Shown here one piece after another: positions 1,852-18,438 of a stretch of 58,959 nucleotides of DNA. This stretch comes from Longimicrobiales bacterium (lineage in GTDB: Bacteria; Gemmatimonadota; Gemmatimonadetes; Longimicrobiales; RSA9). The notes under the pieces are model-generated. The model did no database searches. It worked only from the letters and a program-made list of their open reading frames with translations, and had not been told where the DNA came from. The stretch covers positions 1 to 58,959 of the forward strand of contig DATCLK010000025.1 of assembly GCA_036563975.1 (NCBI GenBank), given 5' to 3'. The first letter of the stretch is position 1, and each line of letters begins with the position of its first letter. The position numbers and the translations under genes were made by a program.

Positions 1852-2003
1852 GGTCTGCCTCCCGGACGTGACAAGGCGCGTAAGTCGCGCGGGTGTCGCG
1901 TTGGTGGTGCGGCCGGCGGCGCGGATAGACCTCTCCCCCAGGAACCGCTGCCGGCTGTTGACGGTGGCCCCGTCGGAGCGGGCGGGCGCGGCCGGCGCGC
2001 GGA

Positions 2004-3218
2004 TCAACCTGTCCCGCCGGCGCGCCCCGGTGCAAGGGTACGGGCGATGCGGCGGATACCCTCGGCGAGCGTGTCCTCGCTGGCGGCGAAGGAGAGCCGG
2101 ACGAAGCGATCATCGCCGAAGGCGGAGCCGGGCACGAGCGCGACGCCGGCATCCTCGATCAGCTTGCGGCAGAGCGCGACGCTGCTGTCGACCTCACCCC
2201 CGAAAAAGCGGTCGACGCGGAAGAAGAGGTAGAAGGCGCCTTCCGGGTAGACGAACTCGGTGCCGGGCAGTAGCTCGCGGAAGAGCGTGACGACGCGGTC
2301 GCGGCGCCGTTGGAACGTGTCGCTCATGGCGCGGAGCTCGGCGGCGTGCTCGCCCTCGGCGCGGTAGGCGGCGAGCGCTGCGTACTGGGAGGGCGTCGCC
2401 GCCGCCGTGGTGATGTGGCTCTGGAGGGCGGCCATGTGGCGGGCGAGCTCGGGGCTCGAGTACGAGAACCCGATGCGCCAGCCGGTCATGGCGAAGGTCT
2501 TCGAGGCGCCGTCGATGATGACGCAGCGGTCGAGCGAGGCATCCGGCAGCTCGAGCAGGCTGGGCGCAGCGTCGGCGGTGAAGCAGATGCGGCTGTAGAT
2601 CTCGTCGCTGAGGATCCAGATGCCACGCTCGGCAGCCCAGCGGTCGATGGCCGCGAGCTCCTCACGCGTGTAGACCGCGCCCGTGGGGTTGCAGGGCGAG
2701 TTGAGGATGAGGCCGCGGGTGCGCTCGTCGGCGGCGGCGTCGAGATGCGCGGGCGTGACCTTGAAGCCGCGCGCGGGGTCGCCGTGGACCGGCACGGGCT
2801 CGGCGCGGGCGAGGCGCAGGATCTCGGGGTAGCTCGTCCAGTAGGGTGCAGGGAAGAGCACGCGGTCGCCCGGACCGAAGAGGACGAAGCAGGCGTTGAA
2901 GAGAGCCTGCTTGGCGCCGGCGCTGACGACGACCCCGGCGGGGTCGGCCTCGCGGCCCGTGCGCTGGGCGAGGTCGCGGGCGATGGCCTCGCGCAGGGGC
3001 TGGATGCCGGGCGCGGCGGCGTAGCGCGTGGCGCCCTGGTTGATGGCGTGGATGGCCGCGTCGCGGACGAACGCGGGAGTGTCGAAGTCGGGTTCGCCGG
3101 CGCTGAGGTCGATGATGTCCCGGCCGCGTGCGCGCAGCTCGCGCGCGAGCGCGGCGACGGCGACGGTGGCAGAGGGCTCGAGGCCCGCGATGTTCGGGCT
3201 GGTACGCAAGGTCGTCAT
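2004..3218 (-). CDS. class I/II PLP-dependent aminotransferase (aspartate aminotransferase-like)
   Basis: Start MTTLRTSPNIAGLEPSAT. Conserved aminotransferase blocks (NSPCNPTGAVY, SKTFAMTGWRIG with the PLP lysine, FVRLSFA). Convincing start is 22 codons inside the track ORF. Confidence 0.85.
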   Translation of the reverse strand: MTTLRTSPNIAGLEPSATVAVAALARELRARGRDIIDLSAGEPDFDTPAFVRDAAIHAINQGATRYAAAPGIQPLREAIARDLAQRTGREADPAGVVVSAGAKQALFNACFVLFGPGDRVLFPAPYWTSYPEILRLARAEPVPVHGDPARGFKVTPAHLDAAADERTRGLILNSPCNPTGAVYTREELAAIDRWAAERGIWILSDEIYSRICFTADAAPSLLELPDASLDRCVIIDGASKTFAMTGWRIGFSYSSPELARHMAALQSHITTAAATPSQYAALAAYRAEGEHAAELRAMSDTFQRRRDRVVTLFRELLPGTEFVYPEGAFYLFFRVDRFFGGEVDSSVALCRKLIEDAGVALVPGSAFGDDRFVRLSFAASEDTLAEGIRRIARTLAPGRAGGTG

Positions 3219-3394
3219 GCGCGATGTTCTCGTTTGGCGGTTTCGGAGCGGCGGGAATATGCCGGGGCGCGGGTGTAGCCACAAGACGGGCGGCTTGCCG
3301 GGGCGGGTGAGGCGGGTCAGATTGTGAGCGCTCGTGCAGACAGTGCCGATCGAGCAGGTGCCGCCGGAGCGGGCGGCTGGAGAGAACGGAGCCG

Positions 3395-3679
3395 ATGGCG
3401 GATTACGAACGGATCACGGCTGCAGCGGCGCGGGAGGCGCTGCGGCTCGCGGAAGAGGTGTTGACAGCGCGTTTGCCGCTGCGGAAGGTGAGCGAGGACA
3501 GGCATTCGATCACGTTGACGGGCGCGGACGGGTCGGTCACGATCCGCGTGCATCGTCACGGACCGGATACGCTGGTGCACGCATCCACGGACCAGCTCCG
3601 CACGTCACGACTGGACCTCGAGACGCAGTATTACCTGAACCGGCTGCCGTACCAGCCCGGGGACGTGCCGAAGCGCTGA
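3395..3679 (+). CDS. hypothetical small protein (94 aa)
   Basis: Balanced, non-Ala/Arg-rich composition. GGAG-type RBS a few nt upstream. No recognisable family. Confidence 0.4.
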   Translation: MADYERITAAAAREALRLAEEVLTARLPLRKVSEDRHSITLTGADGSVTIRVHRHGPDTLVHASTDQLRTSRLDLETQYYLNRLPYQPGDVPKR

Positions 3680-3901
3680 GCCGACGGGCGTCCAGCGGGG
3701 TGCGAGGCCGCGCGCCGCACGCCGGGTGGGCGGCTCGGTGCCGGCGTGGCGCCTTGTAGGTCGTCGGGGCCGGGCGGTCGTCGCGGCGACGGACGCGCGA
3801 CGGCCCGCGCCTGCGTTGCCGCGCGTTTCCGCGTGGCGCAGGCGCGGGCCGTTTTCTTGCGCGGGGGCCGGTTGGGTGCGCGGGGCCGGCCGCGGGCGGC
3901 C

Positions 3902-5341
3902 TCAGTCGATGCCGGCGCTCGGCTCGACCTCGGCCGGTGATGGCGCGGCGGCGCGCCGCTCCTCGAGCAGCGCGTTGGTTTCCCTGACAACGACGCCGGA
4001 GAGCAGGATGAGGCCGATCAGGTTGGGGATGGCCATGGCGCCGTTCATGATGTCGCTGAACGTCCAGACGAGCTGGAAGCCGGTGGTGTGCTCGAGCTCG
4101 AGGACCCAACAGCCGACGAAGGTCGCGATGACGAAGAGGACGCGGTAGGGGATGATGGCGCGGACGCCGAGCAGGTACTCGATGGCGCGCTCGCCGTAGT
4201 AAGCCCAGCCGAGGACGGTGGAGAAGGCGAAGAGGGCGAGGCCGATGGAGACGATGTGCTGGCCCCACTCGCCGGGGAGGCCGGTCTGGAAAGCGGCCAT
4301 GGTGAGCGGCGCGCCGGTGAGCGCCTGGCCGGTCAGGGGGTCGGTCCGAGTCCACGCGCCGGTGGCGATGATGGTCAAGCCGGTAATGGAGCAGACAATG
4401 ATCGTGTCGATGAAGGTCTGGGTCATCGAGACGAGGGCCTGGCTCGCAGGGTGACGGGTCTGGGCCGCTGCGGCGGCGATGCCGCCGGTGCCCAGGCCGG
4501 ATTCGTTGGAGAAGACGCCGCGGGCGAAGCCCCAGCGGACCGCGTCTCGCACGCTCGCGCCGAGGAAGCCGCCGATGGGCGCGGCCGGGGTGAAGGCCTC
4601 GCTGAGCACGTAGACGACCATCGAGGGGATGCCGCGCCAGTTGATGAGGAGGACGAGCAGGCCGCCGGCGATGTAGAACAAGATCATGAAGGGGACGAAG
4701 AAGCTCGTCACGCGGCCGATGCTCTTGATGCCGCCGAGGATGGTGAGTGCGGCGAAGGCGGCGAGAATGACGCCGGTCCAGAGTGGCGGCATGTTGAAGG
4801 AGCTGCGCAACGCGTCGGCCACGGAGTTGGCCTGGACCATGTTGCCGATGCCGAAGGCGGCGATGGCGGCAAAGAGTGCGAAGAGGAAGCCGAGGGTCTT
4901 GCCGAATGGTCCGCCGATGCCGCGGGAGAGGTAGTACATGGGTCCGCCGGCCATGTTGCCGAGGGCGTCGACGACGCGGTAGCGGACGCCGAGCACGGCC
5001 TCGGAGTACTTGGTGGCCATGCCGAAGAGGCCGGTGACCCACATCCAGAAGAGGGCGCCGGGTCCACCGGAGGCGATGGCGGTGGCGACGCCTGCGATGT
5101 TCCCGACGCCGACCGTCGCGGCGAGGGCGGTCATGAGGGCCTGGAAGTGGGAGATGTCGCCCTCAGCGCCCTCCTCCTTTCGCTTGATGAAGGCGAGCCA
5201 GAGCGAGTGCTTGAGCTCGCGGAACTGGAGGCCGCGCAGCAGGATGGTGAGGAAGACGCCGGTGCCCACCAGGAGCAGGATGGTGGGGAGGCCCCAGACG
5301 ATGTTGCTGATGCGGGCGAGGAAGAGCTGCGCGTTCTCCAT
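3902..5341 (-). CDS. sodium:alanine symporter family (AGCS) amino-acid carrier
   Basis: Start [30 protein letters not shown]. Multiple TM segments and AgcS-like blocks ([25 protein letters not shown]). ATG at 5339-5341. The track ORF has 35 extra upstream codons. Confidence 0.9.
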
Positions 5342-5464
5342 GATGCTCCCGTCGGCGGAGTTGTTTTTTGGCGAGAATGCCTCGAAGCTAAGCGCCTGGG
5401 CGCCAAGATCGCAAGCGTGTATATTTGCAGGAATCCTTGTCAGCACGTGTGATGTGAGCTGGAG

Positions 5465-6994
5465 ATGGCGGAGACGTTTGCCGACCTGGGGTTGAAGCCG
5501 GAGCTGGTGGAGGCGGTGCGGGCCGCGGGATACGAGGCGCCGGCGCCATTGCAGCGGAGCGCTGTGCCGGTGCTGCGGCGGGGAGGCAACGCGGTGCTCT
5601 ACGCCTCGCCCGGCGCCGGGGTGGTGGCGGCGTACGGGTTGGGGCTGCTGGACCGGCTGGTCGGGACGGAACGGGGACAGGGGCCGCGGGCGCTGGTGGT
5701 GACCGGGAGTGATGCTGCGGCGGGGCGGATCGCGCTGTCGCTCGCGCGGCTGGGGCGGAGGGCCGGGGTGACCGTCGCGGCGGTGGGTCCAGGCTGGGCG
5801 CCCGGGGTTCCGGCGGTGGTGGTGGCGGCGGTGGACTCGGCGTTGCGGGAGGTGGAGGCGTCGCGGCTGAAGCTGGAGTCGCTGGAGGTGTTCGTCCTGG
5901 ATTCAGCGGCGGCGGTCTTCGCGCTCGGGTTCCGTGACATGGTGGAGACGCTCATGGTCTCGGTGCCGCGGGACGCGCAGCGCGTGGTGGTGACGGCGGA
6001 GGCGACGCCGGATGTGGAGAGTTACATCGAGCGGCACGTGCGGCGGGCGCTGTGGATCCCGGGCCGGCCCGCTGTGGGTGTGGAGGCGACGCCGACCCGG
6101 GGGGTGCTGCGGTACGCCGTCGCGCCGGATGGCCGCGAAGCGGAAGTGCTCGCGGAGCTGATCGCGAGCGGCGCGGTGCGGCTGCCGGCGGCGGTGCACT
6201 GCCGGACGAGGGCGGGGGCGGAAGCAGCGGCGCAGGCACTCGAGCTGCGCGGCTTCGCGCCGGGCGTCGTGGAGGCGGGAGTCGGGGGTGCGGTGTTCGG
6301 GCTGGCGGCCGAGCCCGGCGCCGCGGAGGCGGCGGAGGGACAGACGGTGGTGAGCTACGACGTGCCGTTCGATGCGGCAACGCTGGCGGAACGGCACGGC
6401 GGTGGAGGTGTGGTCCTGGTGCTCGCGCGCGAGTTGCCTCACCTGAGGCAGCTCGCGGCCGAGGCGGGCTTCACGCTCGAGGCGGTGGGCGGAGAGGCCG
6501 CGCTCGGGCGCGGGGACCTGGACGCGTATCGCGCATTGGTGCGCCGCGCGGTGCGCGAGGAGGACCTGGCCGCTCAGATCCTCGTGCTCGAGCCATTGCT
6601 CTCGGAGCTCTCGGCGGTGGAGGTCGCGGCCGCGCTTAGCGCGCTGCTGCGGCGGCGGGCGCCCATTGCCGCGGCAGCGCCCACGGCGGCAGCGCCGGCC
6701 GGCCCGGGGCCGCGACCGTGGGTCAGGCTGTTCGTCAGCGCGGGTCAGCGCGACCACATTCGCCCGGGCGACCTCGTGGGCGCGATCACCGGAGAGGCGG
6801 GCATCACGGGGGAGGAGGTGGGACGGATCGACATCCGGGACACGTTCTCCATCGTGGAGGTCGCGGCGGAGTCCGCGGAGCGCGTGATCCAGGCGTTGAA
6901 CGGGGTGACGCTGAAGGGGCGGAGCCTGCGCGTGGATTACGACCGCAGGCCGGCGCAAGCGCCACGCCGACCGCGCGGGGCCGGCGGGAGCTGA
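5465..6994 (+). CDS. DEAD-box helicase-like protein with degenerate catalytic motifs and a C-terminal DbpA-type RNA-binding domain (probable pseudo-helicase)
   Basis: N-terminus aligns to the DEAD-box Q-motif region (FADLGL...GYEAPAPLQ...AVP). The Walker A position reads SPGAG instead of GSGKT. The DEAD position reads VLDSAA. The SAT position reads TAEAT. The C-terminus ([49 protein letters not shown]...LKGRSLRV) matches the DbpA/DeaD RRM-like RNA-binding domain. The 509-aa frame is intact. Confidence 0.75.
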
Positions 6995-7034
6995 GGGCGG
7001 AGAGGAGTCGTCGCGAGGGCAGGCCAGAACGCAC

Positions 7035-7696: not shown

Positions 7697-9115
7697 TTGT
7701 TGAACTCACCACAACCAGGGCGTACCGAGGGAGAGGTGCGGCGCGACCCGGTCGGGGGACGGGGACAGCGCGAACTGGACATCGCGCGGGAGATCGCACA
7801 GGCGTTCCTGAATGCGACGCGCGCGGTCGAGGTGTACCGTCTCGCGCTGGCGCGTGTCACGCCGCTGGTGGGAGCGACCTTCAGCTCCGTGTTTCTGCGT
7901 GACCCCGCCGAGCCGCAGTTGCTCAAGCTGGCGTGTGCGCAGAACTGGCCGCAGTCCTCGGCCCGCTTCCTCGGCCAGCTCCGGATCCGGGTCGGCCGCG
8001 GGCCGACGGGCCGGGCGGTGGAGGAGGGGCGCCCGATCGCCGTCGAGGATGTGTTCGCGGATCCGGCGCTGCTGGAGTGGTGGGAGCCGGCGCGGGAGCT
8101 CGGGTTCACGTCGTTGATCTCGCTGCCATTGCGGGTGCGGAGCGAGACGGTCGGCGCACTGAGCTTCTACTTCGAGCGGCAGCACCGCTTCGGCGAGGCG
8201 GAGTACGAGCTCCTGGAGCTGGTCGCGAACCAGCTCGCGGCGGCGGCGGAACGGGCGCAGTTGCTGGAGGACCTGCAGCAGGCGAACGCACAGCTCCAGC
8301 GGCAGAACGTGGAGCTGGCGGCGCGCGTCGAGGAAGCGGAGCAGGCGCGGCGGCTGAAGGAAGAGTTCCTGGCCAACATGAGCCACGAGCTGCGGACGCC
8401 GCTCACCGCGATCATGGGGTACGCGTACCTGCTGGCCGAGGGTCATACCGGCCCGCTGACGGAGCAGCAGGTGCAGTGCGTCCGGAAGATCGAGCGTGCG
8501 GGGACGGCGCTGCTCCGGCTGATCAGCGACCTGCTGGATCTCTCGCAACTCAAGCTGGGCCGCGCGCGGCTCGAGATCGCAGTGCACGATGCGGCGGCGC
8601 TCGCACGTCGCGCGGTGGAGATGGCGGGCGAACCTGCGCCGGGCGTCGTCTTCCGGCTGGTCGAAGAGGAGCCGCCGTTGCCCGTGGAGACGGACGCCGA
8701 GAAGGTGGTCAAGATCCTCGAGAACCTGCTGACCAACGCGTTCAAGTTCACGGCGGCAGGCGAGGTGAAGCTGACCGTCCGGCGCGGGCCAGCGGGGAAG
8801 GCGGCGTGGCCCGAGGCGGCGAGCCGCGGCGGGCCGGCAGAGCCGGCGACGGGCGGGTGGGTGGAATGGGCGGTCCAGGATACGGGCATCGGGATCGATG
8901 CCAGGGACCTGCCCATCATTTTCGACGAGTTCCGGCAGGTGGACGGCTCCTCGACGCGCCTGTACGGCGGGACGGGTCTGGGTCTGGCGCTGTCGCAGCG
9001 GCTGGCGCGGCTGCTGGGCGGCGAGATCACGGTGGAGAGCGAGCCGGGCCGCGGCTCCACCTTCACGCTGAGGCTGCCGGCGGCGCCCGTAGCGGCGGGC
9101 ATGCCAACGGCGTGA
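7697..9115 (+). CDS. GAF-domain sensor histidine kinase (cytoplasmic)
   Basis: N-terminal GAF-like region. Coiled linker. H-box EFLANMSHELRTPL. N, G1 and G2 boxes (NLLTNAFKFT, QDTGIGID, GGTGLGLALSQRLARLLGG). Start uncertain: the track start is TTG at 7697, with an alternative GTG at 7736. Confidence 0.8.
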   Translation: MLNSPQPGRTEGEVRRDPVGGRGQRELDIAREIAQAFLNATRAVEVYRLALARVTPLVGATFSSVFLRDPAEPQLLKLACAQNWPQSSARFLGQLRIRVGRGPTGRAVEEGRPIAVEDVFADPALLEWWEPARELGFTSLISLPLRVRSETVGALSFYFERQHRFGEAEYELLELVANQLAAAAERAQLLEDLQQANAQLQRQNVELAARVEEAEQARRLKEEFLANMSHELRTPLTAIMGYAYLLAEGHTGPLTEQQVQCVRKIERAGTALLRLISDLLDLSQLKLGRARLEIAVHDAAALARRAVEMAGEPAPGVVFRLVEEEPPLPVETDAEKVVKILENLLTNAFKFTAAGEVKLTVRRGPAGKAAWPEAASRGGPAEPATGGWVEWAVQDTGIGIDARDLPIIFDEFRQVDGSSTRLYGGTGLGLALSQRLARLLGGEITVESEPGRGSTFTLRLPAAPVAAGMPTA

Positions 9116-9335
9116 TGCCGCGGCACGCCGGGGTGGCGTGCAGACCCGGCCCCGGGCCGCCGCTGTCCATTCATCGCGCAATACCAATCGCGCATGCCGA
9201 TCGAGTGATGCCGCAGCGCGGCGGCGCAGAGTGCAGACCCGGTCCAGTAGGCCGCCGACCGTTTAGCGCGCATGCCAACCGACTGACACCGCAGCCCGCC
9301 GGTGCGGAGCGGCGTCGCCGTCCGCGCCGGGCTTG
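9100..9335. repeat. three degenerate tandem direct repeats of about 80-93 bp
   Basis: Units begin CATGCC at 9100, 9193 and 9271. R1 and R2 share GTGCAGACCCGG and CCGCCG. All three share CATGCCRAYCGRSTGAYRCCGCRGC. The first unit overlaps the last codons of the histidine kinase. The overlapping junk ORF shows a 3x peptide periodicity (HANGVMPRHAGVACRPGPG / HADRVMPQRGGAECRPGPV / HANRLTPQPAGAERRRRP). Confidence 0.55.
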
Positions 9336-9530
9336 CGGTCCCACGCCCCCGCGGGCGCGCACGCCCCCCGATCCGTGATGGAACCAGCACAGCCACCAGG
9401 ACGCACGCGACGGGTCGCCGCGTCGGAATGTCGTCTCCGCCTCACCCGCTGCGCCACCGCGCCGACACGATCGGCACGCATACCGCGCTTCGCCGCGGCG
9501 GGGGGCCTGGTCAGGTCACGGGCTGCGGCT

Positions 9531-11441
9531 TCAGTGCGCCGTGGTGACCTCCTCCTGGCCGTCGAAGCGCGCGCGCAAGACGGGCATCGGGCGCGGGCGC
9601 GTCATCGCCTCGGGCGAGAGGATCTCATCCAGCTCTTCGCGAGTCAGCCAGCCCTTCTCCAGTACCAGCTCGTAGACGCCCCTGTCGGTTTCCAGCGCTT
9701 CCTTGGCGACGGCGCTCGCGCGGTCGTACCCGATGAACGGGACGAGCGCGGTGACGATGCCGATGCTGCGCTCGAGCAGGTACCGGATGCGCTCGCGGTT
9801 CGCGGTGATGCCGAGCACGCACCGCTCGCGCAGCACGATGCAGGCCTGCACGAGCATGTCGATGGACTGGAAGATGTTGAAGGCGATGACGGGCTCGAAG
9901 ACGTTGAGCTGGAGCTGGCCGGCCTCGGCGGCCATCGTCACCGTGAGGTCGTTGCCGACGACCTGGTAGCAGACCTGGTTGACCACCTCGGGGATGACCG
10001 GATTGACCTTGCCCGGCATGATGCTGGAGCCCGGCTGCATGGGCGGCAGCGAGATCTCGCCGAGGCCCGCGCGCGGGCCACTGGAGAGCAGGCGGAGATC
10101 GTTGCAGATCTTGGAGAGCTTCGTCGCCACGCGTTTGAGCACGCCCGAGAGCTGGACGAAGGCGCCGGTGTCTGGCGTCGCCTCGACGAGGTCCGGGCTG
10201 GTGACGAGGGGAAGGCCGGTGATCTCGGAGAGGCGCTCGCGGACGAGGGGTGCATAGCGGGGGTCGGTGTTGATCCCCGTGCCGATGGCGGTTGCACCCA
10301 TGTTGATCTCGAGCATGAGCTTCGCCGCGTCCTGCAGCCGCTCGATGTCCTTGCCCAGCGTGACGCCGAAGGCGTGGAACTCCTGGCCGAGGGTCATGGG
10401 CACGGCGTCCTGGAGCTGGGTACGGCCGATCTTGACGATGTCCGCGAACTCGTCGGCCTTTTGCAGGAATGCGTCACGCAGGGCGGCGAGCGCGTCCACG
10501 AGCTCGGCGAGCGCCCAGGTCGCTGCGATCTTGAGCGCCGTGGGATAGACGTCGTTGGTGGATTGCGAGAGGTTGACGTGGTTGTTGGGGTGGACGATGT
10601 GGTACTCGCCGCGGCGCCGGCCGAGCAGCTCGAGCGCGCGATTCGCGATGACTTCGTTGGCGTTCATGTTGGTGGACGTGCCGGCACCGCCCTGGATGAC
10701 GTCCACGACGAACTGATCGTGCAGCGCTCCGCTGCGGATCTCGCGACACGCGGCGATGATGGCGTCGGCGATGCGTTCGTCGAGCAGGCCGAGCTCGCGG
10801 TTGGCAAGGGCGGCGGCCTCCTTGACGGCGGCGAGAGCGTTGATGAGGTGCGGGTACTGCGCGATGGTGATGCCGGTGATGGGGAAGTTCTCGACGGCGC
10901 GCAGCGTCTGGATGCCGTAGTATTCGCGGTCGGGGACCTCGCGTTCTCCGAGCAGGTCCTTCTCGCGCCGCAGCTCGCCGGACAGGTAGACCTGCTCGCG
11001 GCCGGCCAAGCGGGCGTTGGCGGCGCGCAGGCGACTCGCGATGATCTGGGCCGCGGCGATGGCGAGCCGGGCGTAGAGCGCGGGCCGCTCCTCGGCGATG
11101 CGCGTGATCGCCGCGCGAGGAAGCTCGACGGCCTCTACGGGTTCGGTGACGTAAGCGGATGTCGAGTGCGGATAGTCGTCCAGCAGCGTGCCCTCGGCGT
11201 AGGAATCGCCGGGGCCGAGCACCGCGAGGACCCGGTCGTGGCCGCGGTGCCGCTTGCGGATCTCGACCCGGCCGCGGATCAGGATGCCGAATTCGCGGCG
11301 GGGTTGGTTCTCGCGAAAGATGTAAGCGCCGGGTAGGTAGCAGATGACGCGTGCGAGCGAAGCCAGGTACTCGCGGTCCTCGGGCTGCACCTGCCGGCTG
11401 ATCACGTGGTTGCGGAGGGTCTTGAGGATGACGTCCTGCAT
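9531..11441 (-). CDS. aspA: cyclic-nucleotide-binding domain fused to class II aspartate ammonia-lyase (aspartase)
   Basis: Residues 1-150 carry a CAP-family cNMP-binding fold (GILIRGRVEI...LGPGDSYAEGTLLDDYPHSTSAYV). The remainder is aspartase/fumarase class II with the signature GSSIMPGKVNPVIPEVVNQ, plus KDLLGEREVP...YYGIQTLRAVENFPI. ATG at 11439-11441. Confidence 0.85.
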   Translation of the reverse strand: MQDVILKTLRNHVISRQVQPEDREYLASLARVICYLPGAYIFRENQPRREFGILIRGRVEIRKRHRGHDRVLAVLGPGDSYAEGTLLDDYPHSTSAYVTEPVEAVELPRAAITRIAEERPALYARLAIAAAQIIASRLRAANARLAGREQVYLSGELRREKDLLGEREVPDREYYGIQTLRAVENFPITGITIAQYPHLINALAAVKEAAALANRELGLLDERIADAIIAACREIRSGALHDQFVVDVIQGGAGTSTNMNANEVIANRALELLGRRRGEYHIVHPNNHVNLSQSTNDVYPTALKIAATWALAELVDALAALRDAFLQKADEFADIVKIGRTQLQDAVPMTLGQEFHAFGVTLGKDIERLQDAAKLMLEINMGATAIGTGINTDPRYAPLVRERLSEITGLPLVTSPDLVEATPDTGAFVQLSGVLKRVATKLSKICNDLRLLSSGPRAGLGEISLPPMQPGSSIMPGKVNPVIPEVVNQVCYQVVGNDLTVTMAAEAGQLQLNVFEPVIAFNIFQSIDMLVQACIVLRERCVLGITANRERIRYLLERSIGIVTALVPFIGYDRASAVAKEALETDRGVYELVLEKGWLTREELDEILSPEAMTRPRPMPVLRARFDGQEEVTTAH

Positions 11442-11657: not shown

Positions 11658-12395
11658 TCACCGCGCGCCCGACATCCGCGGGCGGGGCGGGATCCGCTTG
11701 CGGACCGCCGGCTCGCTCGGCGCGCCATCGTGCGGGGCCGCGAGGCGGGCGCGGACGTGATCGAGCAGCTGCTCGGGGCGACGGAGGCCCAGGATGAGCT
11801 CGTCGTTGACGTAGATCGCGGGCACGTGTCCGGGGGCCAGATCGCGGGCGGCGAGCGCGTCCTCCTCGACCTCACGCGCGATGGCCGGGTCGGAGAGGCA
11901 GCGGGCGAAGCCGGCGGTGTCGAGGCCGAGCGCGGCAGCGTACACGATGAACTTCGGCTCGGGCGGCTCGCCCTGGCTCCATTCGGCGACGCGCTCCGCG
12001 AGGAGGCGATGCATGTCCCACTGCTTGCCGTCACGTGCTGCGCAGTAGGAGGCGCGCGCGGCGGCGGGCCCGCGGCGATGCGCGCGGAGCGGCGCGTGGA
12101 TGTGGACGTAGCGGAGCCGGCCTTCCGCCGCCCAGTGCCGTAGCCGGGCGCCGGCCTCTTCATCGAGCCAGCGGCACGCGGCGCACTGGAAGTCGCTGAA
12201 GATACGGACGACGACGGCGGCATCGGCGGGCCCGACCGCGACGCCGGCGTGGCGCGTCCGTTCGGCGATAGCCTGCCCGATACGCATCGTGCGGATGGAT
12301 GGCTCGCGGGTCACGGCGAACGTCGCTGCGAGCATCGCTGCTGCGCCGGCTGCGATGATGACGAGGATGGCGGTCGTGAACGCGCGGGTGCTCAT
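11658..12395 (-). CDS. membrane-anchored DsbA/thioredoxin-fold thiol:disulfide oxidoreductase
   Basis: Start MSTRAFTTAILVIIAAGAAAMLAATFAV, a TM anchor. CxxC active site in FSDFQCAACRWL. DsbA-like C-terminus. ATG at 12393-12395 chosen over the upstream extension. Confidence 0.75.
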   Translation of the reverse strand: MSTRAFTTAILVIIAAGAAAMLAATFAVTREPSIRTMRIGQAIAERTRHAGVAVGPADAAVVVRIFSDFQCAACRWLDEEAGARLRHWAAEGRLRYVHIHAPLRAHRRGPAAARASYCAARDGKQWDMHRLLAERVAEWSQGEPPEPKFIVYAAALGLDTAGFARCLSDPAIAREVEEDALAARDLAPGHVPAIYVNDELILGLRRPEQLLDHVRARLAAPHDGAPSEPAVRKRIPPRPRMSGAR

Positions 12396-12477
12396 GCGGG
12401 TGTCGCTCCTGGCAGCGAAGTGCGCGGCGCCTGCCGCTGTGGCAAGCCCAGCAGGGCCTGCCACAGCGGCTCACGGA

Positions 12478-12765
12478 TCACCCCAGCGACAGCGAGGAGC
12501 TGCACGCGACGTCGATTCGGTCGCCATTCGACCCGATATAGACGCCCACCTGCGTCGAGAGGGTCATCCGCACGGTCACGATCGAGGTGCCCACCCAGAC
12601 GGGAGCGTTGAACTGCTCCCGGACTTCGTAGCTCCCGACGAGCGTCCACGTCCCCCCGCCGCTGCCGAGCGAGACCTCCGACGGGCAGTCCGCACGAGCG
12701 CTGGTGGCGAGCGCGAGGACGAGCGCGAGGGCGGACACGGCGGCTGGCAATCTGGAACGGCGCAT
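12478..12765 (-). CDS. small secreted 2-Cys protein, paralog A (95 aa precursor)
   Basis: Signal peptide MRRSRLPAAVSALALVLALATSARA followed immediately by DC. The mature part is about 70 aa, Gly/Ser/Thr/Val-rich, with a second Cys near the C-terminus (DVACSSS). ATG at 12763-12765. Confidence 0.6.
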   Translation of the reverse strand: MRRSRLPAAVSALALVLALATSARADCPSEVSLGSGGGTWTLVGSYEVREQFNAPVWVGTSIVTVRMTLSTQVGVYIGSNGDRIDVACSSSLSLG

Positions 12766-12818
12766 GGGAAACCCCCCGGTATGGCCCGCAGGTGCGGGCA
12801 CGTGTAGGTCGCGCCCGC

Positions 12819-13002
12819 GAGCCGCACCGGGTACTGCACGGTTCAGGGCTCGATTCGCTGCCGGTGCGGCCGGTCCGGGGAGGTGCGGGAGCCGGCCGGG
12901 ATGCATCCGGTTCATCTGGTGGCCACGCGGTCCGGCGTCGTCGTCGAGCCGGGCCGGCGCGTCTCGCGGCGGCCGTGGAGGAGTCACGCGGCGTGCCGGG
13001 AA
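12819..13002 (-). promoter_or_regulatory. conserved non-coding leader, copy A (about 180 nt, hairpin with CCUCC-containing loop in mRNA sense)
   Basis: Near-identical to 14860..15041. About 90% identity by eye over the central 140 nt, with one indel and a short divergent patch. Same orientation and same gap of about 55 nt to the downstream start codon. Contains the stem CGGCCGG/CCGGCCG at 12867-12873 and 12892-12898 around an 18-nt loop. Confidence 0.5.
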
Positions 13003-13362
13003 GCGAGGGCGCCGCCGGTCGTCCGTAACTCGTTGTGGCGCTTGGACGCGAGCGCCGTCCTCGCCCGGTGGAGCCATGCGCTGTGGGGACAGGCGGCGCG
13101 CATTGGCCAGCCGGTTCCGGACACTTCCGGTCAACGCGACTTCGGCAGGCCGCCATGCGTCGTGGAAGTGGATCGAGGCGGTGAGCGAGCGCGGCTCCGC
13201 CGCGGGCGTGCGGCGTTGCCGGCGCAAGAAAGAACAGCGCCTGCACGCGCGGCGCTGCGCAGCGCGTGCAGGCATGATTGCGGCCCGATCAGCCACGCCG
13301 CAGCGGGGGCGGTGGCATTCGGCTCCTGAGCCGCTGTCGGCGCAGGAACGCGCGCGGCCGGC

Positions 13363-14403
13363 TCAGCCGCGCCGGGCTTCCTCGAGGGCGAAGGCGTGGA
13401 GCCCGTCGTTCGTCACGAAGTACAGGACGTTGTCGCGCACGGTCATACTGCTGGCCCGGTGCGCGGCGTCCCATGGCCCGCTCTCGGCAGGGACACGCAC
13501 CTCGCGCAGCGTGTAGGTTGCAGGATCGATCAGGACGGCGACGACGTCTCCCGAGCTCAGTGCGATGAGCAATTGGCCGTCTGCCGTGGTCGTGAAGTCC
13601 TTGACCAGCGGCGTGTGGAGGACCCTGGTCCCCTGGCGGGCAAAGGCCTGGATCGCTTCCTGATGGCGCTGACGGATCGGGTCCAGCAGCCGGTCGGGCA
13701 GGCGGGCGGTCCGGCGTACCTCGCCCGCCTGGTCGAGGCGGAAGAGCACGCCCTCCCGGCCGTCGAAGACGTGGAATGCGCCGTCGGGCGTACGGACGAC
13801 GAGGAACTCGTCGCGCAGGCTCGCCCGGCCGGCGTCGCCTGCCGCCTCCAGCTCGAGCGCCGGGGGACGAGGGCCCCAGGGATGGCGGTCGTCTTCGGGC
13901 GTGATGACGGTGAAGTAGGCATCCGGGGAGGCGTGGGCGACGTGATAGACGGAGCCATCGGGGCCGACGGCGAAGCTGCGCAGCAACTCGCGGAGCTGCA
14001 CCTCGCGCACCAGTTCGCCATCGGGGCGGAAGAAGGAGACGCGCTGATTCGTCAGGTCGCCGACGACGATGAGGCCGTTCCAGCTCACGAGGCCGAAGGG
14101 GGCCTGGAACTCTCCGGGCCCCGCGCCGCTGCGGCCGAAACGGTGCAGCAGGTCGAGCCGCGTGTCGAAGAGCGCGATGCGGTCGTCGTCGACGTCGGAG
14201 ACGACGAGGGTGTCGCCGAGCAGTCGGATGCGAAGCGGCCTGACGAGCGGGAACGAGTCGTCCTCGATGGCGGCGACGCGTCTGGCGAGGAGCTCGCGAA
14301 CGACGAGCGGCGGCCCGCCGATGCCGGTGGTGAGTTCGTCACGGGAGTCGAGTGCGCTGCAGGCCGCGAGGAGTGGCAGGGCGAGGAGGATGCGGGTGCG
14401 CAT
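13363..14403 (-). CDS. lipoprotein with NHL/beta-propeller-type repeats
   Basis: Start MRTRILLALPLLAACSALDS, with lipobox LAAC. Repeated motifs of the form DGxLxVxD / GxGPGEFxxPxGL typical of NHL/TolB-like propeller blades. This is the true gene inside the artefactual 1011-aa track ORF 13363..16398. Confidence 0.7.
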   Translation of the reverse strand: MRTRILLALPLLAACSALDSRDELTTGIGGPPLVVRELLARRVAAIEDDSFPLVRPLRIRLLGDTLVVSDVDDDRIALFDTRLDLLHRFGRSGAGPGEFQAPFGLVSWNGLIVVGDLTNQRVSFFRPDGELVREVQLRELLRSFAVGPDGSVYHVAHASPDAYFTVITPEDDRHPWGPRPPALELEAAGDAGRASLRDEFLVVRTPDGAFHVFDGREGVLFRLDQAGEVRRTARLPDRLLDPIRQRHQEAIQAFARQGTRVLHTPLVKDFTTTADGQLLIALSSGDVVAVLIDPATYTLREVRVPAESGPWDAAHRASSMTVRDNVLYFVTNDGLHAFALEEARRG

Positions 14404-14471
14404 GGTGCCTCGTCGGGTTGGGGTCTGATGCTGTCGGGCGGCCGGTCGAGCCGGCCGCCCGAGCCGCACGA

Positions 14472-14807
14472 TCAGCGCCGGCTGTAGTTCCTGCAGTCCA
14501 CCTCCCAGATCTCGCCGTTGCTCATCTGATAGTGGCCGATCTGATACGTGTACGTGATCGTGTTGGTCCGGGTGTACGAGCCGGAGCCCGAGGCGCCGGC
14601 CCCGCCCGGCCCGCTGACGCCTGCGCTGAAGGTCACCGTCTGGGTGACGGTCTCGGTCACCGTCGTGGTCCCGAGCAGGGTGCCGGTATTGGGCGAACTG
14701 TTGATGCCGGTGGAGATGTAGGGAGCGCAGTCCGCCCATGCCCGGGCGGCGACAGCGAGGACGAGGGCGAGGGCGGGCGCGACGGTGCGCAGAGTGGTGC
14801 GATTCAT
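14472..14807 (-). CDS. small secreted 2-Cys protein, paralog B (111 aa precursor)
   Basis: Signal peptide MNRTTLRTVAPALALVLAVAARAWA followed by DC. Thr/Gly/Ser-rich mature part (TTTVTETVTQTVTF...) with a C-terminal Cys (EVDCRNY). Same architecture as 12478..12765. ATG at 14805-14807. Confidence 0.6.
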   Translation of the reverse strand: MNRTTLRTVAPALALVLAVAARAWADCAPYISTGINSSPNTGTLLGTTTVTETVTQTVTFSAGVSGPGGAGASGSGSYTRTNTITYTYQIGHYQMSNGEIWEVDCRNYSRR

Positions 14808-14859
14808 GGGACGCCTCCCGATGGGGCCCGCGAGGCGGGCGTTGGTCGTTTCTGCCATC

Positions 14860-15041
14860 GAGCCGCACCGGGCAGAGGAGTCCGGGCTCGTGCGGCTGCC
14901 GGCTGCGGCCGGTCCGGGGAGGTGCGGGAGCCGGCCGGGATGCATCCGGTTCGTCTGGTGGCCACGCGGTCCGGCGTCGTCGTCGACCCGGGCCGGCGCG
15001 TCTCGCGGCGTGCGTGTCGAAGTCACGCGGCGTGCCGGGAG
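14860..15041 (-). promoter_or_regulatory. conserved non-coding leader, copy B
   Basis: See copy A. Lies between the sigma54 activator stop (15140) and the paralog B start (14807). The same hairpin is present at 14908-14914 / 14933-14939 (CGGCCGG / CCGGCCG). Confidence 0.5.
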
Positions 15042-15139
15042 GCCACACGGGCGCGCTGATTCGTGCAAGGGCCCATGACTCAAGGAATTGATGGCGGCTC
15101 GTGCGTTTTGGGGCCATAGCTCGACGGGACACGCGGTGG

Positions 15140-16309
15140 TCAGCGGCCGGCCGCTTCCGGCTGCTTGTGGGCATCGAGGCCGAGGTGCCGGAGCTTGAGG
15201 CGAAGCGTGTTGCGGGCCATGCCGAGGGCGGCGGCAGCGCGGGTCTTGTTGCCGCGGCAGAGGCGGAGTGCTTCCTCGATGCGGCGGCGCTCTTCGTCCG
15301 CAGAGCCGTAGAAGGAGTAGCGGACGCGGGGGAGTATGCGATGCGCGCGTGCGCCGTCGGTGTCCGGCAGGCCCGTGGCGGCGGTGCCGGGTGGCAGCGC
15401 GGCGTAGGGCGCGAGGTGCTGAGGTTGAGGCGCGAGGTGCTCGTGGATCGCGGGCGCGTGACCATGGGGCGGTGGCGGGCTGGTGAGGGTGGTGGGGAGG
15501 TGTGCGACGCCGATGGTGGCGGAGTCGCAAGCGAGGACGGCGGCCTCGACGGCGTGGGCGAGCTCGCGGATGTTGCCGGGCCAGGTGTAGGCGTGCATGC
15601 GTGCGAGTGCAGCAGGAGAGAAGGCGCGGGCGGGCCTCTGGTAGCGCGCGGCGTAGTGATCGAGGAAGTGACGCGCGAGGAACTCGAGGTCGCCGTCGCG
15701 GTCGCGGAGCGGGGGCAGGCGGTAGGAGAGCACGAGCAGGCGATGGTAGAGATCGCGGCGGAAGCGGCGTTCGGCGACGGCGCGCTCGAGGTCCACGCCG
15801 GCGGCGGCGATGATGCGGACGTCCACGCGCAGCGTCCGTTCGCCGCCGAGGCGGCGGATCTCTCCGTCCTCGAGCGCGGTGAGGAGCTTGGCCTGGAGCG
15901 AAAGCGGCAGCTCTCCGACCTCGTCCAGGAAGAGTGTGCCGGCGCTGGCCTGCTCGAAGAGGCCGCGGTGGGCCTGGTGGGCGCCGGTGAACGCGCCGCG
16001 GGTGTGGCCGAAGAACTCGCTTTCGAAGAGGGTTTCCGGCACCCCGGCGCAATTGATGGCGACGAAGGGTGCGCGGGCGCGGCGCGAGCATTCGTGGATG
16101 GCGCGGGCGAGGAGGCCCTTGCCGGTTCCGGTCTCGCCGGTGAGGAGGACGGGGGCGTCGACGGCCGCGGCGCGGCGGCCGAACTCACGGAGCGCGGCGG
16201 CGGCGGCGCTGCGTCCCAGGATGCGATCGAGGGCGTCCACGGGTCGGTTCGGGGAATCGGTTTGCGGGTGTCGCGGCGCAGGATGGCGTGGCGGGCTGGG
16301 CGAGGCCAT
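15140..16309 (-). CDS. sigma54-dependent transcriptional activator (AAA+ EBP with Fis-type HTH) lacking an N-terminal sensory domain
   Basis: Walker [15 protein letters not shown] motif ([12 protein letters not shown]). Arginine-finger region. C-terminal HTH ([26 protein letters not shown]). The AAA+ core begins about 25 aa after the chosen ATG (16307-16309). The further upstream in-frame sequence is Pro/Arg junk. Confidence 0.85.
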
Positions 16310-16668
16310 AGGTGGACGGGTCGGTGCGCCGCCCGGGGGCTCGTGGGTGCCGACGCGCGGTGCGGGACGTGCGAGCGGCTCGGGCCGTCGCGAACCACGG
16401 GCGGCCGAGCGCCGGGGAGAACGCCCGCGACGGCAGATCGGGCAAGGGTGGCGCTGTCCCCGCCTCAAGGTTAGGTTTGGGGCGAATCGTTTTCATTGAA
16501 TCTGGAGGTCGGACGGGCGCCCGGAGGGGTCGCCCGGCACGAAGATAGATCGGGGCGCCGTCGGCGCGCGTCGGCCTCGAGCGAGGCGATTCGCGCGGCG
16601 GGGCGGCGGGCCCATTGTTCCGGGCGGTGGGGGAGCTGCCCGGTGGCGCGAACCAGGAGATCGTCGAG

Positions 16669-18438
16669 ATGGCGAGAGAGACGAGCTCGGTGAGTGGTAG
16701 CGGGGCGCCGGTCACGGCGCCGAGCGCGGCAGCGGTTGCGCCGGCGGAGCGCACCTTCCTCGGTCATCCGCGCGGGTTGTCGACGCTGTTCTTCACGGAG
16801 ATGTGGGAGCGGTTCAGCTACTACGGGATGCGGGCGCTGCTGGCGCTGTTCATGACGACAGCGGCGGTGGGCGCCAACCCGGGGCTGGGCTTCAGCGAGG
16901 CGACGATGGGCGCGGTGTACGGGCTGTACACCTCGATGGTGTACCTGCTGACGCTGCCGGGCGGCTGGATTGCGGACAACCTGTGGGGCCAGCGCAAGGC
17001 GGTGTTCGTTGGGGGCTGCATCATCGCGCTGGGCCATTTCACGCTGGCGGCGCCGCTGGTGGGTGCGCCGGACGTGCCGTCGTTCTTCCTGGGGCTGCTG
17101 TTCGTGGCGGTCGGCACCGGGCTCCTGAAGGCGAACGTCTCGACCATGGTGGGCGATCTCTACCCGCCCCCGGGAGAAGCGGCGACGGAGAAAGAGCGGC
17201 AGGAGTGGGCGGCGAAGCGGGACTCGGCGTTCTCGATCTTCTACATGGGGATCAACATCGGGGCGATGCTGGGCCCGTTCATCTGCAGCACGTTGGGCGA
17301 GGGGTTCGACTGGGGGTTCCTGCGGTACGAGGGGAGCTGGCATCTGGGCTTCTCGCTGGCGGGTTTCGGGATGGTGCTGGGCCTGATCCAGTACAAGCGT
17401 GGTGACCGGTACCTCGGCAGTGCGGGCTACCTGAAGACGAACGATCCGGAGCACGTGTTGCGGCGGCGCGCCCGGAACTTCTACGTCACCACGGCTGCGG
17501 TGGTGGCGGCGGCCGCGCTGATGGTCTACCTGCTGGTCTCGGGCGCCCTGGGCATCACGCTCACGGACTTCGCGGCGTGGGTGGGGTACGGCATCCTGCT
17601 CGTCGCGCTCCTGTTCTTCACGTACCTGATCTTCGACGTGTGGTGGGCTGCCGGGCTGCTCGCGCTGTTCGGCGTGTCGACGTTCCTGGTCCCGGGTCAG
17701 GGGACGGCCGCCGGGCAGCAGGCGATCGGCGTGACGCTGGGCGCGTTCGTGCTGATGAACCTGGTGCTGCTGCTGGTGCGGCGGGGCGGGGTCAGCGTGG
17801 AGAAGAAGCGGCTGATGGTGGCCTTCTGGCTGTTCCTGCTGGCGGCGACGTTCTGGGCAGGGTTCGAGCAGGCCGGCTCGTCGATGAACCTGTTCGCGCG
17901 GGACCTCACGGACCGCACGCTGTTCGGCTGGGAGATCCCGGCGGGCTGGCTCCAGAACGTGAACCCGTTCTTCATCATCGTGCTGGCGCCCGTGTTCGGC
18001 GTGCTGTGGACGTGGCTGGCGCACCGTAACCGGAATCCGTCGATCCCGATGAAGTTCGCGCTCGGGGTGCTGGGCCTCGCCGCCGGCATGTTCGTGCTGG
18101 CATGGGGCGCGTCTTACGCCTCGGCGACGAACCGGGTGTCAATGGCGTGGCTGGTCACGACCTACTTCCTGTTCACGGTCGGCGAGCTGGCGCTCTCGCC
18201 GGTCGGGCTCTCCTCGATGACGAAGCTGGCGCCGCCGGGGCGGCTGGGGCAGATGATGGGCGTGTGGTTCATCGCGTCGGCGCTGGGCAACCTGTTCGCG
18301 GGTTTGGTGGCGGGCTCGCTCGAGACGCTGTCGCCGAGCGAGCTCTTCATGAGGATCGGGCTGGTCGCAGCCGCGGTGGGCGCGCTGGCGCTGGTGCTGA
18401 GCCCGGTGGTGAACCGGTTGACGGGAGGGATCCGCTGA
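16669..18438 (+). CDS. POT/PTR2-family proton-dependent di/tripeptide transporter
   Basis: Canonical POT signature FLGHPRGLSTLFFTEMWERFSYYGMRALL, with 12 or more TM segments. AGGAG RBS 10 nt upstream of the ATG at 16669. The alternative upstream ATG at 16615 lacks an RBS. Confidence 0.9.
   Translation: MARETSSVSGSGAPVTAPSAAAVAPAERTFLGHPRGLSTLFFTEMWERFSYYGMRALLALFMTTAAVGANPGLGFSEATMGAVYGLYTSMVYLLTLPGGWIADNLWGQRKAVFVGGCIIALGHFTLAAPLVGAPDVPSFFLGLLFVAVGTGLLKANVSTMVGDLYPPPGEAATEKERQEWAAKRDSAFSIFYMGINIGAMLGPFICSTLGEGFDWGFLRYEGSWHLGFSLAGFGMVLGLIQYKRGDRYLGSAGYLKTNDPEHVLRRRARNFYVTTAAVVAAAALMVYLLVSGALGITLTDFAAWVGYGILLVALLFFTYLIFDVWWAAGLLALFGVSTFLVPGQGTAAGQQAIGVTLGAFVLMNLVLLLVRRGGVSVEKKRLMVAFWLFLLAATFWAGFEQAGSSMNLFARDLTDRTLFGWEIPAGWLQNVNPFFIIVLAPVFGVLWTWLAHRNRNPSIPMKFALGVLGLAAGMFVLAWGASYASATNRVSMAWLVTTYFLFTVGELALSPVGLSSMTKLAPPGRLGQMMGVWFIASALGNLFAGLVAGSLETLSPSELFMRIGLVAAAVGALALVLSPVVNRLTGGIR

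Follow-up and report, generated by a model that had tools for sequence, protein, structure and literature searches.

A class II aspartase fused to a CRP-type cyclic-nucleotide-binding domain with a non-canonical pocket in Longimicrobiales and other bacteria

Background

Does an aspartase that carries a sensor domain in its own polypeptide respond to a small ligand, and which ligand would that be? The question is raised by a gene on the minus strand (9531..11441, 636 amino acids) of a 58,959-nucleotide stretch of DNA from a Longimicrobiales bacterium (contig DATCLK010000025.1, assembly GCA_036563975.1), here called the window. The gene joins a cyclic-nucleotide-binding (CNB) fold of the CAP/CRP type to a complete class II aspartate ammonia-lyase. 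A first-pass annotation, made from the letters of the window, had proposed this fusion and had read it as direct allosteric coupling of the enzyme to a cyclic nucleotide. The fusion is borne out by the present analysis and the protein is probably a ligand-gated aspartase, but that it is coupled to a cyclic nucleotide has yet to be established, because the two residues that mark a canonical pocket are both replaced in the family.

Aspartase stands at the junction of nitrogen release and carbon supply to the tricarboxylic acid (TCA) cycle. The class II enzyme is a tetramer of identical subunits, three of which contribute to each active site, and it deaminates L-aspartate to fumarate. Its known control is transcriptional or, in Escherichia coli, exerted in trans by the PII protein GlnB.

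Architecture of the fused gene

Positions refer to the forward strand of the window and residues are numbered from the ATG of the open reading frame (ORF). This ATG is the first possible start codon downstream of an in-frame stop, and the stop codon of the gene occupies 9531-9533. Three Pfam domains match within the one frame: cNMP_binding (PF00027) at residues 35-118 (E = 5.1e-15; 55.7 bits against a gathering score of 27.5), Lyase_1 (PF00206) at residues 165-496 (E = 6e-104) and FumaraseC_C (PF10415) at residues 562-615 (E = 8e-24). This is the combination that the first-pass annotation had suggested looking for, and with the NCBIfam matches given below it confirms an in-frame fusion to a complete aspartase. 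The peptides on which that reading was based are all present in the ORF, namely GILIRGRVEI (residues 52-61), PGDSYAEGTLLDDYPHSTSAYV (77-98) and GSSIMPGKVNP (471-481). A search of the PDB gave no single chain that spans both the CNB domain and the aspartase. A database entry 100% identical to the window protein is named 'aspartate ammonia-lyase', which is also the only annotation given to the fusions in the databases.

The aspartase part, delimited by TIGR00839 and by alignment with the aspartase 6wng, comprises Lyase_1 and FumaraseC_C and covers residues 158-636 (9534..10970). It scores 730 bits with TIGR00839 aspA (cut-off 681.2) and 769 bits with NF008909 (cut-off 510), whereas the fumC models stay below their cut-offs (TIGR00979, 509 against 664.75). 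The best match in the PDB is 6wng, aligned end to end over residues 156-617 (E = 1e-176), and the E. coli aspartase 1jsw is aligned at E = 3e-172. The catalytic motifs, with coordinates checked, are TSTNMNANE (residues 255-263, 10653-10679), SQSTND (292-297, 10551-10568) and GRTQLQDA (339-346, 10404-10427), and the SS-loop with its GSSxMPxKxNP signature lies at 9999-10031; all four segments align with 6wng. By model cut-offs and motifs this part is an aspartase, and it is predicted to be catalytically active.

Occurrence and integrity of the fusion

A frameshift or missed stop between two genes had been named in the first-pass annotation as the event that could mimic such a fusion. The best-scoring 120 clusters (at 90% identity) of a Gemmatimonadota clade all have the three domains, with lengths of 594-657 amino acids and 71-98% identity, and come from many independent assemblies. 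A further 120 clusters, the best from a full-length profile search in a clade of Zixibacteria, Ignavibacteria and Bacteroidota, are likewise all three-domain proteins within this span of lengths. The fusion is consequently found in 240/240 retrieved full-length clusters from two deep clades, and counts out of 240 refer to these two sets of 120. The SS-loop motif is present in 239 of them, and 154 positions within residues 176-620 are invariant across 29 full-length fusions of the two clades.

When one genome per GTDB species was scanned for the motif EGx[LI][LM][DE][DE]YPH, 215 species-level genomes were found, a lower bound since the scan samples only these variants of the motif. The 80 loci listed from these genomes belong to Longimicrobiales, Longimicrobium and other Gemmatimonadota, Bacteroidota, Ignavibacteria, Zixibacteria, Calditrichota, Kapabacteria and Chloroherpeton-like metagenome-assembled genomes (MAGs). 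Nearly all contain one uninterrupted ORF of about 616-660 amino acids with the motif and the SS-loop, in genomes with a GC content of 29-73%, and the closed chromosomes OY970192.1 and OY969570.1 are among those with an intact ORF. No cultured host is named among the 80 loci or the 240 clusters listed, all of which derive from MAGs or metagenomes.

More distant members were found by searching the N-terminal 170 residues against 1.8 billion representatives at 50% identity. Many matches run on into the N-terminus of an aspartase at 30-45% identity, with cNMP_binding and Lyase_1 confirmed by Pfam, and the source names of these fused representatives include Gemmatimonadaceae, Pirellulales and Desulfobacterales. 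A profile search with the N-domain by itself returned short fragments only, and the matches in the 50%-identity library are mostly truncated or frameshifted fragments. This bias likely arises from full-length members being clustered with other aspartases. The architecture in distant lineages was confirmed through genomic DNA and the full-length profile search.

The truncated or frameshifted representatives from distant lineages are what speaks for an artefact in which a CRP-like gene and aspA were joined by a frameshift, a missed stop or mis-assembly. Against it stand uninterrupted two-domain ORFs in 240 independent clusters and in dozens of independently assembled genomes, the closed chromosomes included, a conserved junction motif (see below), and a family in which neither a helix-turn-helix (HTH) domain nor an intervening stop occurs anywhere. 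The chance of an artefact is negligible, and the earlier worry about a frameshift or missed stop can be set aside given intact ORFs across so wide a range of GC content. The architecture had also been called uncommon. Overall it is indeed rare, but all the retrieved Longimicrobiales clusters have this form, and it also occurs in several FCB-group lineages and in at least 215 species-level genomes. Its distribution, which had been proposed for study, extends over several phyla including Gemmatimonadota, Zixibacteria, Ignavibacteria, Bacteroidota and Calditrichota, and also over Pirellulales and Desulfobacterales.

One divergent sequence was seen among the matches. A 2,425-bp JGI contig encodes a protein of 422 amino acids (P0136) with a CNB domain of the His type described below, the first ~80 residues of an aspartase and a HATPase_c domain. 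It is probably a chimeric assembly or a frameshift, although it could be a different fusion.

Fold of the N-domain and the junction

The N-terminal domain belongs among the proteins of the CNB fold, with a PF00027 score above the gathering threshold and a beta-barrel followed by a C-terminal helix. It matches Mycobacterium tuberculosis (Mtb) CRP over residues 18-148 (E = 4e-11). Its nearest relatives are the cAMP receptors Mtb CRP and GlxR, with 26-28% identity and a template modelling (TM) score of 0.75. AlphaFold modelled the domain alone with a predicted local distance difference test (pLDDT) score of 92.9 and a predicted TM score (pTM) of 0.85, and the nearest structural neighbours of this model are cAMP-bound CRP and GlxR. 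The full-length model has a pLDDT of 82 and a pTM of 0.70.

Helices and an eight-stranded beta-barrel of the CAP effector-domain fold make up residues 1-119 (11085..11441). In the model, two N-terminal helices (residues 2-29) are followed by the barrel (31-108), which includes a short helix at 83-86 in the phosphate-binding cassette (PBC), and by a hinge helix (109-118). Then comes a long C-helix (residues 120-145, 11007..11084), placed by the AlphaFold helix and by alignment, which is the equivalent of the dimerisation and signal helix of CRP. A junction defined by conservation (residues 146-157, 10971..11006) is poorly modelled and leads into the first beta-hairpin of the aspartase (157-170). 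In the 6wng alignment, plain aspartases start within about ten residues of this hairpin, so the C-helix of the sensor is joined almost directly to aspartase domain 1.

The N-domain evolves fast; among the 29 full-length fusions, the identity between clades is 28-32% in the N-domain and 62-67% in the aspartase part. The junction motif 'Y-x-S-G' (residues 152-155, 10977-10988) is nevertheless kept, with Y152 in 223, S154 in 232 and G155 in 234 of the 240 clusters. In the 29 fusions G155 is invariant and Y152 and S154 are nearly so. This conservation argues for a defined and presumably rigid coupling between the domains, not a floppy tether.

Lacking an HTH domain, the fusion protein does not qualify as a transcription factor of the CRP/FNR type: neither HTH_Crp_2 nor Crp of Pfam matches, and the aspartase follows the C-helix in the place of such a domain. 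The FtrB model NF006901 matches residues 7-129 only and does so well below its cut-off.

The ligand pocket

Alignment to Mtb CRP with phmmer places the beta2-beta3 loop at 'QPRR' (residues 46-49, 11295..11306), with Arg48 encoded at 11298-11300. The PBC equivalent YAEGTLLDDYPHSTSA (residues 81-96, 11154..11201) aligns to FGELSIFDPGPRTSSA of Mtb CRP and contains Glu83 (11193-11195) and His92 (11166-11168), and Arg137 (11031-11033) lies on the C-helix. Numbers for the RI-alpha subunit of protein kinase A (PKA) follow PMC2246266 and our own residue count. Three pocket residues are retained. Glu83 corresponds to Mtb CRP E80 and PKA E200, which binds the ribose 2'-OH; Ser93 corresponds to T90 and A210 in the place after the phosphate-clamping arginine; and Arg137 corresponds to the C-helix arginine R130 of Mtb CRP, in a segment where PKA is not aligned. 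Two residues depart from the canon. His92 occupies the site of the arginine that clamps the cyclic phosphate (Mtb CRP R89, PKA R209, R82 in CRP), and Arg48 that of the loop glycine packing on the PBC arginine (Mtb CRP G44, PKA G169).

Both the retained and the departing residues are conserved. R48, G57, E83 and H92 are each found in 240/240 clusters, S93 in 238 and R137 in 234, and the Gly-Glu ribose feature of the cassette is accordingly present through E83. Histidine at 92 is also found in 35/35 deep-branching representatives visibly fused to an aspartase, and arginine at 48 in 30 of the 33 distant fused representatives in which the position is readable. In non-fused CNB domains from the same match list, the position equivalent to 92 holds arginine in 149/215, and that equivalent to 48 holds glycine in 107 and alanine in 34 of the 215. 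A cross-phylum alignment of 33 N-domains with 23-69% identity leaves only G57, E83, H92 and R137 invariant and F42 and R48 nearly so; all of these except G57 and F42 are ligand-pocket positions of CRP or PKA.

The cassette residue before Glu83 is glycine in 214/240 clusters and Ala82 (codon 11196-11198) in the window protein, which with its closest relatives reads 'SYAEG' where the family consensus is 'SFGEG'. A separate non-canonical CNB family in tandem arrays was also met with (P0126, P0229 and P0246), with five repeats in the 840 amino acids of P0126. In the P0126-type repeats the position of the PBC glutamate is tryptophan and that of the arginine is tyrosine ('GWGA...VYTAS').

A survey of 30 CNB families by Kannan et al. 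2007 (PMC2246266) found that the PBC arginine co-evolves with the beta2-beta3 glycine, which contacts its guanidinium. Families without the Arg/Gly pair are described there as having a 'non-canonical PBC', and several of them bind other ligands. The heme of CooA is ligated by a histidine that corresponds to R209 in structure, chlorophenolacetate is bound by an asparagine in CprK, and PDZ-GEF naturally has methionine or histidine at the arginine site with unclear ligand status. The substitution R209K alone lowers the affinity of PKA for cAMP about ten-fold. No lyase fusion is among the CNB families of that survey, the text of which contains neither 'lyase' nor 'fumar'. In trypanosomatids the R-subunits of PKA have polar residues in place of the PBC arginine and bind inosine, guanosine and adenosine, not cAMP (Bachmaier and colleagues, PMC10959531).

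In the fusion family neither of the two marks of a canonical cAMP/cGMP site is present, the PBC arginine being His92 and the beta2-beta3 glycine being Arg48. Several of the CNB families that lack the Arg/Gly pair bind other ligands, so that cAMP or cGMP cannot simply be taken as the effector, and it is on this point that the reading of the fusion as coupling to a cyclic nucleotide goes further than the data. Literature searches with varied wording yielded no description of a CNB-aspartase, and the architecture appears uncharacterised.

Mechanism and effector

The conservation pattern is the one expected for a preserved binding site, as opposed to an appendage that is decaying or has a structural role only. 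Selection in the fast-evolving N-domain is strongest on residues of the pocket, which is good evidence that the pocket is in use. In the mechanism that we propose, a catalytically complete class II aspartate ammonia-lyase (L-aspartate to and from fumarate and NH4+) would carry a CRP-type CNB sensor at its N-terminus. A small effector would bind in the classical CNB pocket lined by Glu83, His92/Ser93, Arg48 and the C-helix Arg137. By analogy with CRP, PKA and the mycobacterial acetyltransferase Pat, occupancy of the pocket might reposition the C-helix. Because a short conserved Y-x-S-G junction links this helix to aspartase domain 1 at its first beta-hairpin, movement of the helix would alter enzyme activity, likely by relieving autoinhibition or by a change in the SS-loop and the active site, which several subunits form. 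By the same analogy with CRP, C-helix pairing could plausibly bring the CNB domains together at each pole of the tetramer.

Regulation of this kind would act on the enzyme and not on transcription, as the first-pass annotation pointed out, and it would be built in by the fusion. Post-translational control of an aspartase by carbon and nitrogen status has a precedent, since E. coli AspA interacts in trans with GlnB, a PII protein that senses 2-oxoglutarate (Schubert et al. 2021, cited in PMC11617674).

Several points weigh against a ligand-gated enzyme. Binding and allostery are read from homology and conservation. Junction residues 143-154 have low pLDDT in the monomer model, and the relative placement of the domains is not confident; the structure prediction that had been suggested for the domain interface consequently delivered a confident CNB fold but no confident interdomain geometry. 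The C-helix positions that contact the purine base in CRP (A141 and N142 in the alignment) vary within the family and lend no support to a conserved base-specific contact. With the canonical phosphate-binding arginine absent, the domain could in principle be ligand-free. It would then be a structural, oligomerisation or constitutively autoinhibitory 'CNB-homology domain' like that of the KCNH channels, a reading that draws on the existence of such ligand-free domains, on the KCNH/hERG examples among the structural neighbours, and on the missing arginine and uncertain geometry just mentioned. We consider it improbable, as the few invariant residues (R48, E83, H92 and R137) belong to the pocket and not to the core or an interface, which is hard to explain without a ligand.

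If the pocket is occupied, one candidate is cAMP or cGMP, which would couple the aspartase directly to second-messenger levels. The Pfam match lies above its gathering cut-off, the nearest relatives in both sequence and structure are genuine cAMP receptors, the cassette is of full length, with 'G-E-G-S-L-L-D-D-Y-P-H-S-T-S-A' resembling the actinobacterial 'G-E-L-S-I-F-D-P-G-P-R-T-S-S-A', and E83, S93 and R137 are kept. Arg48 sits where a residue touches the PBC arginine in PKA (PMC2246266) and could give the phosphate its missing guanidinium in a variant mode of binding. However, the phosphate-clamping arginine is replaced by histidine in every cluster and every deep-branching fused representative; a change as mild as R209K is costly in PKA, and families with histidine or methionine at the site are classed as non-canonical (PMC2246266); and loss of the arginine in trypanosomatid PKA goes with a switch to nucleosides (PMC10959531). 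The positions on the C-helix that would contact the base are not conserved either, and no cyclase gene was found among the annotated neighbours, although not every gene in the window was annotated. A cyclic nucleotide is a tentative candidate, rather doubtful on balance. The other possibility is a small molecule different from a 3',5'-cyclic nucleotide, held in a remodelled His92/Arg48/Glu83/Arg137 pocket. Candidates would be purine nucleosides, nucleotides that are not cyclic, dicarboxylates that report carbon and nitrogen status (2-oxoglutarate, the ligand of NtcA, or else fumarate or aspartate), and heme or a metal ligated by His92 as in CooA. Both members of the co-evolving Arg/Gly pair are invariantly replaced, and there are precedents in the CNB fold for heme (CooA), chlorophenolacetate (CprK) and nucleosides (trypanosomatid PKA). 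With R48 and R137 facing each other across the pocket, a ligand that is a dicarboxylate or bears a phosphate would be well accommodated, and a metabolite effector would fit an enzyme of central carbon and nitrogen metabolism, as the tie between E. coli AspA and GlnB (cited in PMC11617674) illustrates. On the other hand, the heme site of CooA is hydrophobic, unlike this polar pocket with its retained Gly/Ala-Glu, and no result points to one specific alternative. A different small molecule is a serious possibility, though short of an even chance. Of similar standing, and not quite an even bet, is the further proposal that the swapped pair His92/Arg48 marks a new ligand class of CNB domains, sensing a molecule other than cAMP or cGMP, and that the fusion is the first enzyme of central metabolism to be gated by a metabolite sensor of the CNB fold.

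Genomic neighbourhood

At the four Longimicrobiales loci compared, the gene is convergent with that of a histidine kinase with GAF, HisKA and HATPase domains, followed by HU and then by the helicase DbpA, and an aminotransferase is nearby, together with a peptide transporter of the PTR2 type, a Na+/alanine symporter or both. The kinase, a cytoplasmic protein, is the immediate neighbour of the CNB-aspartase at all four loci, lying at 7697-9115 (plus strand) in the window and at 12848-14200, 11862-13184 and 11943-13268 in the others (L002, L003 and L004). GAF domains can bind small ligands. No cognate receiver gene adjoins the kinase at any of the four loci, and the pairing with this kinase is not present in the other phyla.

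On the minus strand of the window there are also an Amidohydro_3 protein (124-2007), a class I/II aminotransferase (2004-3284), a Na+/alanine symporter (3902-5446) and a sigma-54 activator (15140-16468), and on the plus strand a PTR2/POT peptide transporter (16615-18438). These surroundings (124-7000 and 15140-18438) suggest peptide and amino-acid utilisation. Because genes for the uptake and catabolism of peptides and amino acids are neighbours, a catabolic role of the aspartase is suggested, in which aspartate carbon would pass to the TCA cycle and ammonium would be released under control of the sensor.

In an all-against-all BLAST comparison of the neighbours of 17 loci from the other clade, no gene was shared beyond close relatives. 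The idea of an operon partner kept across lineages, for instance a cyclase, a transporter or an asparaginase, was considered and rejected, the Longimicrobiales neighbours not being kept in the other clade. Since there is no such partner, sensor and enzyme form a unit complete in itself. A tblastn search of the window revealed no further gene for an aspartase or a CNB protein, and searches around the gene gave a single sub-threshold and implausible Rfam match and no consensus promoter or terminator flanking it.

The intergenic region between the convergent kinase and aspartase genes (9116-9530) is unusually long at 415 bp. It contains a direct repeat of about 53 nucleotides in three copies (9100-9152, 9193-9245 and 9271-9323) that are 68-77% identical and spaced by 93 and 78 nucleotides, the first copy overlapping the 3' end of the kinase ORF. 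The repeat core CATGCC[AG]A[CT]nGnnTGA[CT][AG]CCGC has 3 matches where 0.02 would be expected, and none elsewhere in the window. Further along, a stretch of about 2.7 kb (12465-15140) has no well-supported ORF by a crude gene call based on GC at third codon positions, which may reflect the crude filter, and a long ORF on the minus strand (13363-16398) has no Pfam match.

Implications

The hosts are mostly uncultured bacteria of soil and sediment in which signalling is poorly known. A sensor built into the aspartase in at least 215 species from several phyla would represent a different solution from the known modes of control, namely fast regulation at the level of the enzyme. The invariant histidine at the arginine site together with the invariant arginine at the coupled glycine site is a natural experiment on ligand specificity in CNB domains, and this signature would be either a new way to hold a cyclic phosphate or the mark of a new ligand. 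If the swapped pair does mark a new ligand class, that class would extend across Gemmatimonadota, Zixibacteria, Ignavibacteria, Bacteroidota, Calditrichota, Planctomycetota and Desulfobacterota. Because the proteins are annotated only as the enzyme, neither genome annotation nor metabolic models show that a sensor is there. Aspartases are industrial biocatalysts, and one that can be switched by a ligand may be of practical use.

Comparison with known systems

Among the closest known systems is Pat (Rv0998 and MSMEG_5458; PDB 4ava and 4onu), in which an N-terminal CNB domain is likewise fused in cis to an enzyme domain and for which ligand-dependent activation has been established by experiment. 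Pat Rv0998 is also a neighbour of the N-domain of the fusion in both sequence and structure. It differs in having a canonical PBC and a GNAT domain, whereas the fusion has an aspartase of the tetrameric class II together with His92 in the cassette and Arg48 in the loop. Other fusions of CNB domains to enzymes are found among the structural neighbours, such as the cAMP-activated EAL phosphodiesterase Bd1971, the cGMP-dependent diguanylate cyclase 5h5o and PycTIR (8jsk), but the outputs of these proteins are in signalling or defence and not in central carbon and nitrogen metabolism.

With Mtb CRP (Rv3676) and GlxR of Corynebacterium glutamicum the N-domain shares the length of the cassette, the pattern 'P-x-[ST]-[ST]-S-A', the glutamate, the 'R-R-L-R' region of the C-helix and the length of that helix. 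These proteins, in contrast, carry their own C-terminal HTH domain and the canonical R89 and G44, where the fusion has the aspartase, His92 and Arg48.

The natural replacement of the phosphate-clamping arginine is shared with CooA, CprK, PDZ-GEF and the trypanosomatid PKA R-subunits, all of the CNB fold, and the replacing residue is histidine in CooA and some PDZ-GEFs. CooA has a shortened hydrophobic PBC, whereas the fusion keeps the glutamate and a full-length cassette, and the trypanosomatid subunits have an extra glutamate for ribose binding that is not present in the fusion. The fusion also differs from these non-canonical families in adding an invariant arginine at the position equivalent to G169, a combination that was not found described.

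The aspartase part belongs to the same family as AspA (1jsw), AspB (1j3u) and 6wng, with which it aligns over residues 156-617 with all catalytic motifs and the SS-loop. In the characterised aspartases the 'R-x-E-x-D-L-L-G' hairpin is preceded by at most about ten residues, and a sensor domain is absent. The substrate together with a divalent metal activates E. coli AspA. Regulation of this enzyme through GlnB is exerted in trans (Schubert et al. 2021, cited in PMC11617674), unlike that proposed for the fusion. By its design, with a fusion in cis, a conserved pocket and a conserved connecting element, the CNB-aspartase would work like the known CNB-regulated enzymes, and its activity is predicted to depend on a ligand.

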